Positions 5,236 through 21,840 of a stretch of 64,000 nt of DNA are shown piece after piece. Origin of the DNA: Octopus vulgaris (Eukaryota). Under the pieces are notes generated by a model. That model had not been told where the DNA came from and did not search any database. It was given only the letters and a program-made list of their open reading frames with translations. The position numbers were made by a program, and so were the translations under genes. Every line of letters begins with the position of its first letter. The first letter of the stretch is position 1. The stretch covers positions 25,792,001-25,856,000 of the forward strand of contig OX597819.1 of NCBI GenBank assembly GCA_951406725.2, read 5' to 3'.

Positions 5236-5286
<51 letters not shown>

Positions 5287-5289
5287 ATT

Positions 5290-5875
5290 GTCAATAAATG
5301 TAGCTAGGGGTTAAAAAACCCCACCTACATTGCTAGAAATAAGAGCTAAAATGCTCCAATGCATTTAGTTAACGCACATGAATGAAAACATATTCACTAA
5401 AGGATCTACAATTGTCCGAAAAATATTAGTTCTAGCAAAGTACGTGTTTTTTAACACCCTAGTCATATTTTGTAATAACTATAATTCTCCTTTTTTATGA
5501 AACATTGCAACCTGCTGTTTGGCTTAGTTTTGTGGATAGACATTAGCGAATCGCTAAATCATAAACTAATTTGAATGACAAAAATTATATACTAACAGAG
5601 AAATATGTCCGGAAATAGCCGAACACGGAGCTGGCTTAACTGATGATGGCAACGGAAAGTGCCGAAACTGACGCGTAAGTCTTAAGAATTCTCGGTCGGT
5701 ATTTTTCAGACAATTACGGTCCCTGTTAAAGTATATGTTTTCATTCATGTACTTTAACTACACAGTAGAGCATTTTAGCTCATATTTCTAGCAATGTAGG
5801 TGTTTTAACGCCCTAGTCACATCTAGTGATAATTATAATTCCCTTTTTGGGTGATACATTGCAACATCCTGTTTA
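5290..5875 (+). mobile_element. Retrozyme-like non-coding element: about 356-nt unit in partial tandem plus an inverted fragment
   Basis: 5431-5520 repeats directly at 5787-5875 (offset 356). 5300-5427 is an inverted copy of about 5697-5820. It contains a hammerhead and is homologous to 20430-21318 (-). Confidence 0.7.
5635..5686 (+). ncRNA. Type-I hammerhead ribozyme, intact core
   Basis: cttaa-CTGATGA-t-ggca(acggaaag)tgcc-GAAA-ct(gacgcgta)ag-TC-ttaag. Stem I cttaa/ttaag, GUC cleavage predicted after 5681. Confidence 0.85.
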
Positions 5876-5884
5876 CATTTATGT

Positions 5885-5938
<54 letters not shown>

Positions 5939-6336
5939 TTTTACTTGTTTCAGTCATTTGACTGCGGCCATGCTGGAGCACCGCCTTTAGTCGAGCAAAT
6001 CGACCCCGGGACTTATTCTTTGTAAGCCCAGTACTTATTCTATCGGTCTCTTTTGCCGAACCGCTAAGTGACGGGGACGTAAACACACCAGCATCGGTTG
6101 TCAAGCAATGCTAGGGGAACAAACAGAGATACACAAACATATTCACACACACTTATATATATATACATATATACGACAAGCTTCTTTCAGTTTCCATCTA
6201 CCAAATCCACTCACAAGGCATTGGTCGGCCCGGGGCTATAGCAGAAGACACTTGCCCAAGATGCCACGCAGTGGGACTGAACCCGGAACCATGTGGTTGG
6301 TTAGCAAGCTACTTACCAAACAGCCACTCCTGCGCC
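5939..6336 (-). mobile_element. tRNA-derived SINE family B (CORE-like, internal microsatellite)
   Basis: Nearly identical in reverse complement to 21401-21840. Contains ttgggcaagtgtctt and the tail ..gactgaaacaagtaaaa. Confidence 0.9.
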
Positions 6337-20058: not shown

Positions 20059-20556
20059 AGACGTTATAATGTTTTGACTGTGAGTGTATATTTGTTTATC
20101 TGTCAATGGATTTCTTGAACTATTCAGTGGGGGCATGAAATGTAGTCTGTCTTAATGTAGGAACAGCATGCACATGTCCGTCTTATTTGAGATTGAGTAA
20201 CAAGACAAAACAAAAGCTAAATACTGAACTAGGCTTCAGAACAGTTGATACAGTGATTGCCTAGAGACATTGTAGTAGATAGATTCATTGAAAAGCATTT
20301 CAGTATCTGAGCTTTTATTAACAGATTTAATTTATACGTATGTTTGCCAGTTGATAAATCGAAAACCGATAATTTATTGTCTTTGTGAAGAGGAAGAATT
20401 TCCCATACATTATTTTACTCTGATACACGCACAAAAACGACGCGTGTTTAAAGTTACTTAAAAACAGGAGCTAAATTGCTCCAGTGCTGTTACAAAGTGC
20501 ATAACATATCTACTCTGATAGGGGCTGCAATCGCCCTGAACACCGAACCGAGAATT

Positions 20557-20608
20557 CCTTATATTGACCGGTTAGTTTTGGCTATTGCGGTAGCCATCTT
20601 CAGTAAGG
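20557..20608 (-). ncRNA. Type-I hammerhead ribozyme with G12A, likely inactive
   Basis: Minus strand cctta-CTGAAGA-t-ggcta(ccgcaa)tagcc-AAAA-ctaaccggtcaa-TA-taagg. Perfect stems I and II; GAAA is now AAAA. Confidence 0.75.
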
Positions 20609-20657
20609 CCATTCCGTTTGGTTGATTGCGGGCTACTCGCCTAGAGGAGTATGTATA

Positions 20658-21051
20658 TCTTTATATATAAAAGTCAAGTTGTGTGTCTGTCTCCTACGAT
20701 TTAGATTCCTAACTACTCCCACATTTTGCGGTGCAGTGTAACCAAAAGCGGGTATCTTATAGTCGTGATTCATATTGAGCCCTTCTCGGTATTAGCGCGC
20801 ATCTACGATGTGTCTACGATTAAAAAAAAATTACCATAATTTTTCCGTATTTTTAATGCATTTTCGCTCGGTTTATATAAGGGAAGTAACTCTTTAAAAA
20901 TGTATTATTAAATCTCAGAATGTAAAAAGCTACAGTAACACCCCCCTTTGTGGTTAACCATATTGAGATGGCTATTATACTTTACATCTCTAAAAATGCT
21001 TATATAGTTATTTCCCTTACAAACCCGAGCAACGCCGGGTGATACTGCTAG
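20658..21051 (+). mobile_element. Non-autonomous Helitron
   Basis: Inserted between A and T with no TSD. 5' TC(tttatatataaaag), subterminal hairpin cccg-agcaacgc-cggg at 21024-21039, 3' CTAG. Confidence 0.8.
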
Positions 21052-21400
21052 TTCAGCATAAAAATCTACGGGTGATTTAGCATAGCGCTAATGTGTATTC
21101 AAAGAATGAATAAAAAATGAATTGAAACTGCTCCTTGCAATATTATACTGTAAAAGAAAATTATAATCATCAACCAAACTTGACAAAGAGTGCGAATAAC
21201 ACCGGCATTAATACAAATAGGACCTAAAATGTTCTAATGCTGTTACAAAGAACATAACATATACTCTGATAGGGGCTGCAATCACCCTGCAAACCTAATC
21301 GAGAATTCTTCAGACTGACACACACACATATATATATAAAGATACATACATCCATATACATAAATATACACACATACATACACACATACATACATATATA

Positions 21401-21565
21401 GGCGCAGGAGTGGCTGTGTGGTAAGTAGCTTGCTAACCAGCCACATGGTTTCGGGTTCAGTCCCACTGCGTGGCATCTTGGGCAAGTGTCTTCTCTTATA
21501 GCCCCGGGCCGACCAATGCCTTGTGAGTGGATTTGGTAGACGGAAACTGAAAGAAGCCTGTCGTA

Positions 21566-21614
<49 letters not shown>

Positions 21615-21840
21615 GTGTGTGTGTTTGTGTGTCTGTGTTTGTCCCCCTAGCATTGCTTGACAACCGATGCTGGTGTGTTTACGTCCCCGTCACTTAGCGG
21701 TTCGGCAAAAAGAGAACCAATAGAATAAGTACTGGGCTTACAAAGAATAAGTCCCGGGGTCGATTTGTTCGACTAAAGGCGGTGCTCCAGCATGGCCGCA
21801 GTCAAATGACTGAAACAAGTAAAAAGAGTAAAAAAAGAGT
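21401..21840 (+). mobile_element. SINE family B, full length
   Basis: ggcgcaggagtggctgtgtggtaag..gggttcagtccc head, internal TA/TG microsatellite, aaaaagagta tail repeats. Confidence 0.9.

Follow-up and report, generated by a model that had tools for sequence, protein, structure and literature searches.

Fossil hammerhead-bearing, retrozyme-like repeats with Penelope-type insertion marks in the Octopus vulgaris genome

Introduction

Non-LTR retrozymes of Metazoa, as described by Cervera and de la Pena (2020, PMC7229834), carry one type-I hammerhead ribozyme in each low-GC, non-coding monomer of 150–450 nt (350–390 bp in mussels), are arranged head-to-tail from dimers up to 62-mers, are predicted to form self-paired circles and give rise to abundant circRNA. 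Penelope-like elements (PLEs) were proposed there as the mobiliser, a role argued to date from co-occurrence and homology of pseudo-LTRs (pLTRs). A preprint (bioRxiv 10.64898/2026.07.22.740005) comes to the same conclusion on origin that we reach here, using these two lines of evidence in 35 species, none of them a mollusc, and reports dispersed monomers with unit sizes similar to ours; its accessible text analyses neither insertion ends nor inverted arms, nor any cis-element held in common.

PLE insertions are known by a partial tandem arrangement, a 5' copy in inverted orientation, a tail on one side and a bias towards microsatellites (PMC8557442; PMC3846280). With a purified PLE from the anole, both strands of AT-rich target DNA are cut and extended; initiation takes place internally, at two sites downstream of the hammerhead, no hammerhead cleavage is needed, and in vitro the main template is unprocessed RNA (PMC11167929). 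For the minimal hammerheads of PLEs, templating by RNA circles has been proposed (Cervera and de la Pena 2014, PMC4209133). Short non-coding PLE dependants have been described as the MRC1 elements of Chlamys, which have pLTRs and head-to-tail copies (PMC8557442).

In this study we compare with these systems a 64,000-nt stretch of Octopus vulgaris DNA (contig OX597819.1, positions 25,792,001–25,856,000; hereafter the window), in which an initial annotation had proposed two related copies of a hammerhead-bearing unit.

Results and discussion

The insertion in the window

Locus 1 consists of a forward arm of more than one unit preceded by an inverted arm (Table 1). A direct repeat at offset 356 (5427–5534 versus 5783–5897, 77%, E 5e-18) bears out the partial tandem of about 357 nt that had been proposed, and the forward arm extends to about 5888–5897. 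The outer end of the inverted arm is an 'early' 3' end abutting (TA)n, in the terminology for end zones introduced below. The type-I anatomy of the ribozyme is complete, as annotated, comprising stem I (5635–5639/5682–5686), the CTGATGA core (5640–5646), an extra U (5647), stem II (5648–5652/5659–5663), GAAA (5664–5667) and GUC, after whose C5681 the cut is predicted; stems II and III of this copy contain one mismatch each. A scan with the Rfam hammerhead models, which had been suggested as a check, gave no hit reaching the gathering score anywhere in the window, and scanning 5400–5900 returned just two chance hits (E 1.5 and 8.9), so the ribozyme call is based on motif anatomy and on compensatory changes. 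Folding of the isolated 76-nt hammerhead from the window lent no support (z +1.2), and the window monomer reached z −1.9. Locus 1 is a fossil copy, decayed and from an inactive-looking family: a dead repeat with no evidence for host function.

Table 1. Features of the two loci in the window (c, consensus position)
Feature	Position (strand)	Remarks
Whole locus 1 insertion	5283–~5890	between two (TA)n tracts
(TA)n tract beside inverted arm	5236–5286	putative target
Inverted 5' arm, locus 1	5283–5424 (−), 142 nt	c271 via unit junction to c53; 89% to family A consensus
18-nt core, exact copy, in inverted arm	5331–5348 (−)	common to families A, C, D and E; one-base variant in B
Full family A monomer	5431–5786 (+)	356 nt here, 357-nt consensus; non-coding, 37% GC
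Type-I hammerhead	5625–5696 (+)	distal and proximal stem I, core, extra U, stem II, palindromic stem-loop III
Shared core region, forward arm	5769–5796 (+)	short stem-loop, U-rich loop and conserved 3' flank; one mismatch here
Terminal redundancy, start of second turn	5787–5888 (+)	stops at 'late' 3' end zone (~c105–113), into (TA)n
(TA)n tract beside forward arm	5889–5935	putative target
Family B copy, second part	20459–20655 (−)	hammerhead 20547–20618, core bases mutated; 110-nt redundancy
Unrelated 397-nt dispersed repeat, inserted in family B copy	20656–21052 (−)	14 matches in 12 fetched sequences, itself included
Family B copy, first part	21052–21319 (−)	B consensus c246 via junction to about c153; 82%

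Other repeats share the window. An abundant repeat, probably a SINE, flanks both loci outside the unit at about 5936–6330 and 21400–21800, its two copies lying in opposite orientation and 84% alike over 301 nt. Two further CTGANGA...GAAA motifs at 199 (−) and 51517 (−) allow a stem II, have no convincing stem I and failed a stricter scan. The output of an ungapped repeat finder run on the window was dominated by microsatellites.

Family A across the genome

A search of the genome (2.8 Gb in 227 contigs) with positions 5431–5875 gave 1,672 first-look candidates, and near-full copies among the 40 that were scored are 76–84% identical. With several differently aimed searches, 108 stretches were mapped, 100 of them distinct, in a set biased to long copies. 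The consensus built and the copy ends plotted from this set, as the initial annotation had recommended, describe a dispersed family, hereafter family A, with a majority monomer of 357 nt and 37% GC. A direct repeat at 300–420 nt is present in 48 of 65 loci with a median period of 355, some outliers being unrelated repeats. The unit is ORF-less as first described, the longest stop-free stretch in any frame of the consensus circle being 63 codons. Family A therefore falls within the size, GC and ORF ranges of non-LTR retrozymes (150–450 nt, GC under 45%, no ORF).

Rather than being LTRs, the direct repeats arise where permuted units overlap, to an extent that varies. Redundancy of at least 30 nt occurs in 36 of 60 loci, in which the two turns differ by 9.6% and 10.1% from the consensus and by 16% from each other, and just one of 250 positions differs between turn 1 and turn 2 at p<0.05. 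Turns equally decayed and without fixed differences indicate one monomer sequence at insertion rather than two old paralogous UTR repeats. No copy reaches two periods among the 100 distinct loci, the maximum being 628 nt (about 670 nt when scored less strictly). When 40 hits to the conserved 18-nt core on one contig were taken in list order, 28 were copies of type A or B, mostly stumps of <200 nt, and in this sample one of 28 A-type arms through the core was longer than one period. The cut site is crossed twice in 12 arms, five arms hold two whole hammerheads, and 5' starts show no pile-up at the cut (2 of 182 arms versus 3.6 expected), from which it follows that a linear RNA with its start at the cut did not serve as template.

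Exact-pattern censuses of the hammerhead gave 17 hits for an 18-mer and 17 for a gapped motif, with 0 in reversed controls. Taken with an estimated 8–15% chance of remaining intact, the 17 exact 18-mers suggest that some 100–200 copies in that subfamily bear a hammerhead. Copies have decayed from the consensus by about 10%, and family A is old and looks inactive or extinct, with no sign of present activity. Matches at 80% likeness in assembled contigs (one unlabelled and three presumed-RNA runs) are scattered pieces of many diverged copies with no informative end or joint, and neither monomer RNA nor circRNA was seen, such contigs being blind to level, strand and circularity.

The second locus and family B

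Locus 2 lies on the minus strand, is homologous to locus 1 at 67–69% pairwise and represents a sister family. This family B, known from 26 loci, has a 349-nt consensus that is 76% identical to A and colinear with it round the whole circle including the junction, which upholds the claim that the two loci are colinear over the unit. Near-equal periods of 356 and 359 nt had also been proposed; the first stands, and the second becomes ~354 once the 397-nt insert is removed. Nor does locus 2 run to 20430, since its alignment spans 21319–20459 and is split by that repeat. The hammerhead core is damaged (GAAA to AAAA, GUC to AUA), and the ribozyme is probably dead.

The 397-nt repeat has 80–93% relatives in several fetched loci, and its ends (20656–21052) are, we presume, reminiscent of Helentron/Lep1-like elements. 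Elsewhere, a 112-nt family B hammerhead segment is repeated 12 times in tandem within one ordinary copy (L060:3243–4919; G000:C25:4012417–4013820). The cut triplet is mutated in all 12 ribozymes, so that the array looks like a local amplification at the DNA level, the birth of a minisatellite.

RNA structure and ribozyme decay

The consensus circles fold more stably than shuffled sequences, with z −7.1 for A and −4.6 for B, the latter from an earlier, slightly short consensus. Among 107 ungapped pairs of the A fold traced in B, 79 are unchanged, nine double-changed, four single-changed and still paired, and 15 broken. All nine double changes keep pairing, three of them in hammerhead stems I and II and six outside, although this evidence for compensation is a single comparison of A with B. 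In a 41-row hammerhead alignment, double-change pairs numbered 7 versus 8.0 in shuffles, and the signal comes from three columns, each one A/B event. Two independently decaying turns from one monomer, together with a fold kept in 9/9 double changes, indicate a long-lived non-autonomous lineage.

Loop III is palindromic in both families. In the ensemble predicted for the monomer, helix III is outcompeted, with a probability of about zero, and the active fold is 3.5 kcal/mol less stable than the minimum, which fits cleavage assisted by a dimer or a protein as in PLE hammerheads (PMC4209133). An intact hammerhead core is retained in 35 of 75 family A rows and 8 of 35 family B rows (12 of the B rows being the dead local array); ribozymes decay after insertion. 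Variation among copies includes a subfamily without the extra base before stem II (L009, L010, L014, L021, L023, L027, L035, L037, L039, L058), whose variants occur in all three hammerheads of L039, and a loop III that is 2 nt shorter in many family A copies with the palindrome kept.

Insertion ends

The 3' ends are strongly concentrated: 136 of 151 lie in c1–135, in an early (~c31–66) and a late (~c91–113) cluster, while 5' starts are spread round the unit. Copies had been described as both starting and stopping at variable points; the starts are indeed free, but the stops are confined to this 135-nt stretch. An inverted 5' arm is present in 51 of 100 family A loci and 9 of 26 family B loci. 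Of the inverted pairs in family A, 34 of the 40 classifiable ones join an early to a late end, six are early–early and none late–late (p about 2e-6), the 40 coming from 51 inverted loci after omission of 11 with an end outside the two zones. Family B follows the same trend (5 of 7 early/late), short of significance.

Both flanks of an insertion are usually microsatellite. A microsatellite adjoins 49 of 100 forward 3' flanks versus 9.7% of random positions, and 4–5 nt are common to the 3' junction and the target repeat in 17 of these 49 versus 2% in the null, a share that alignment run-on may inflate. The copies also have the partial tandem arrangement with variable 5' truncation and the 3' tail at one end by which PLE insertions are recognised. 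By analogy with described PLEs, we read the inverted arms, paired end zones and microsatellite targets as PLE insertion marks. These three features were overlooked by the initial annotation and are the strongest mechanistic evidence.

A proposed mechanism and its template

We propose, with a probability of about three in four, that locus 1 is a fossil non-autonomous retroelement of the PLE system which worked like a non-LTR retrozyme. A genomic copy would give a transcript with more than one 357-nt unit, and a PLE RT/GIY-YIG protein acting in trans would bind the conserved stem-loop and core ~90 nt downstream of the cut site. AT-rich or microsatellite DNA would then be nicked and reverse transcription begun internally at ~c31–66 or ~c91–113, a step for which the genomic copies show the pattern of ends and the anole PLE supplies the enzymology (PMC11167929). 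The copies show synthesis halting at a random point and passing without a seam through the junction and the cut site for up to ~1.8 turns. About half of the long copies carry an inverted arm ending at the other zone, which may be gained by priming on both target strands; self-priming is favoured for such arms in PMC3846280. Finally, in copies with two ribozymes, double hammerhead cleavage and ligation could restore unit length and produce a circle round which the RT reads.

We put the odds of such a circular RNA template only slightly above even. The initial annotation had read the copies as multi-turn cDNA of an RNA circle, and the 12 arms that pass the cut site twice and the scarcity of starts there fit this, as they would an uncleaved tandem precursor. 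With no copy at two periods and ~10% decay, a circular template is plausible rather than established.

The main competitor keeps the element and the PLE machinery and dispenses with the circle: a linear, uncleaved template would derive from a tandem master locus, lost or unassembled, or from self-insertion. We hold this to be clearly under an even chance, though a serious contender. It predicts equally well that arms cross the cut site and that starts are lacking at it, it accords with the anole PLE, which dispensed with hammerhead cleavage in vitro (PMC11167929), and the 112-nt array demonstrates that local tandem amplification occurs here. The hammerheads of that array are dead in all 12 copies, however, and five DNA searches, each with 40 candidates scored, yielded no full-monomer array. 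Self-insertion would be expected to leave irregular junctions and turns of unequal age, whereas junctions are seamless and ages equal. Length would also be worn down by linear copying alone, yet across 24% divergence both the period and the fold of the hammerhead persist.

The search for an autonomous parent

GIY-YIG frames are plentiful in the genome, with 6,136 candidates, 150 of which were scored, and include intact 781-aa PLEs with an RT plus a GIY-YIG domain at the C terminus. Three examined copies of the 781-aa type end in (TA)n. Fifty PLE-ORF stretches, biased to one young clade, showed no similarity to the unit except for one unlinked neighbouring copy. An RT + GIY-YIG ORF between pLTRs is absent from the unit and from the copies examined. 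Stem II contains a short ATG frame like that of the anole PLE; it closes after 27 codons in A and ~12 in B and was not accepted as a gene.

These data bear on the possibility that the copies are ordinary 5'-truncated tails, or pLTRs, of an autonomous PLE with a tandem repeat in its 3' UTR. The insertions bear only such hallmarks as ordinary PLEs have, tandem repeats are present in the 3' UTR of some PLEs in this genome (L119 ~287 nt, L122 ~330 nt), and PLE ORF fragments lie within a few kb of nine unit-bearing loci (163 stretches searched, duplicates included). These neighbours belong to different PLE families, and in the five loci inspected the DNA between ORF and unit is microsatellite, a short local duplication or unrelated, which fits shared targets. 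An equal ORF–unit spacing in L149 and L159 was discarded as coincidence, the intervening DNA being unrelated between them. Upstream of the hammerhead, the longest copies wrap into their own unit and never into an ORF, their turns lack fixed differences, and 40 core loci taken in list order, each with about 880 nt of upstream sequence, gave no PLE protein hit at E<0.1. This explanation is largely refuted and we regard it as very unlikely. Conversely, the central claim of the initial annotation, a dispersed non-autonomous hammerhead family that is retrozyme-like and PLE-mobilised, came through the first two of the refutation tests preset for it, there being no attached ORF and a conserved period.

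The searches also recovered a young autonomous PLE family (L110–L116, L128, L129; e.g. L113:768–5460) with a 781-aa RT + GIY-YIG frame and many intact copies. A second long frame without a clear Pfam match precedes its RT frame, its pLTRs are 99–100% identical and end in (TA)n, and one copy (L091) has a ~40-nt tail. The 3' regions of autonomous PLEs (L087, L089–L091, L093, L094, L098, L102–L104, L106, L159) contain hammerhead-like motifs with a palindromic loop III, a weak stem I and a U3–A8 core variant, a variant reported for Schistosoma PLEs (PMC4209133). Hammerhead-like motifs of other short elements were seen at L123:3289–3329 and near 2463 in L159, one of them a head-to-head palindrome directly behind a PLE 3' end.

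A core shared with other families

An exact 18-mer located ~90 nt downstream of the cut site has 1,244 hits in the genome and 0 in a reversed control. Besides the 28 of type A or B, the 40 hits examined comprised four of a family C, three of D, three of E and two left unassigned. Family C (409 candidates) has a 476-nt period and its own hammerhead with a palindromic loop III, and matches A/B solely over 40–80 nt around the core. In the 14 C loci mapped, 3' ends fall mostly at c57–65 or c193–205, ~135 nt apart, with inverted arms and microsatellite flanks. Family D matches A/B over about 45 nt and E is a distant A/B relative, 71% over 140 nt. Loci assigned are L218, L223, L226, L247 and L254–L263 for C, L224, L229 and L245 for D, and L236, L246, L249 and L160 for E; in L245 the hammerhead's stem-loop III is a palindrome of 10 nt. 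Because the searches were keyed on the core, finding it in these families is by construction; the shared hammerhead, the inverted arms and the tandem permutation and end zones of C are not.

In five of six sequences folded, the opening bases of the core pair as the 3' side of a small hairpin whose loop is rich in U, and the core is a candidate RT-recognition signal, judging from sequence. The simplest reading of the families that share it would be descent from one ancestor, with bodies that turn over fast and a core constrained by protein binding. The best core match in the 50 PLE stretches has 4–6 mismatches in 20, near background. A motif that precedes the 3' end in the 781-aa PLE clade resembles the core with 6 mismatches in 20, no better than the best background matches (6–8), and is kept as a lead only.

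A rare deletion by-product of a PLE, passively amplified and with its RNA under no selection, would account for the neutral decay after insertion, ribozyme core included, and is the remotest of the explanations given copy numbers in the hundreds to thousands (1,672 first-look candidates, and 28 A/B-type among the 40 core hits sampled), two families with one junction and compensatory pairing at 24% divergence, and a third family, C, that repeats the architecture with a different body.

We tentatively extend the retrozyme-like reading, at somewhat less than even odds, to a superfamily of ribozyme-bearing RNA circles (A/B of ~350 nt, C of 476 nt, D and E) whose hammerheads differ and whose bodies are largely unrelated, in which the short stem-loop with the 18-nt core would be the PLE RT signal kept by all and the circle would be read from two fixed sites, one per target strand.

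Relation to known systems and significance

In having one type-I hammerhead per low-GC, non-coding, head-to-tail monomer and a predicted self-paired circle, the octopus unit resembles metazoan non-LTR retrozymes (PMC7229834). In contrast to their multimers and abundant circRNA, it is dispersed, below two periods, often with inverted arms and ~10% decayed. We call it retrozyme-like rather than a proven retrozyme, on the strength of genomic copies and because full dimers are absent from the 100 loci. With EN+ PLEs (PMC8557442, PMC3846280, PMC11167929) it has in common truncation on the 5' side, a 5' copy in inverted orientation, a tail on one side only, internal initiation at two sites downstream of the hammerhead and AT-rich or microsatellite targets, and differs from them in the absence of an ORF and in a tail of ~55 nt (A) or ~135 nt (C) versus 30–40 nt. 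The anole PLE initiates without homology (PMC11167929), whereas 3' junctions here often share the 4–5 nt noted above with the target repeat. The ribozyme agrees with the minimal hammerheads of PLEs (PMC4209133) in the extra unpaired base before stem II, G10.1–C11.1 and a palindromic loop III suited to dimers, and is unlike them, and nearer canonical type I, in a helix III of potentially 5 bp and a distal helix I across an internal loop. As short non-coding PLE dependants the Chlamys MRC1 elements are similar, but canonical hammerheads are reported to be missing from the Naiad/Chlamys group, and at the 3' end elements of the MRC1 type look like their autonomous partner (PMC8557442), while no such partner was found here.

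The families constitute a new group of a kind already described, namely PLE-mobilised non-autonomous hammerhead elements (PMC7229834; bioRxiv 10.64898/2026.07.22.740005). No description of the family or of the shared core was found in the literature searched, and Repbase/Dfam libraries or paper supplements may carry the family with a different label; the words 'ribozyme' and 'retrozyme' each occur 0 times in the accessible text of an octopus repeat annotation (PMC13282606), and a squid genome paper (PMC6962438) merely counts hammerheads, 235 by Rfam.

Compared with the preprint, in which pLTR homology is part of the evidence, no homologous pLTR was found in the 50 PLE stretches compared and the insertion signature is direct: the insertions themselves bear the PLE marks of inverted arms, a one-sided tail and microsatellite targets with no ORF at all. 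The strict pairing of early and late arms is a measurable constraint on PLE integration, and the core common to otherwise different families defines a 20–40-nt candidate RT-binding signal. If the superfamily proposal is true, this core would be the missing cis-element of animal non-LTR retrozymes, comparable to the PBS/PPT of plant retrozymes, and the insertions would be direct genomic proof of PLE mobilisation.
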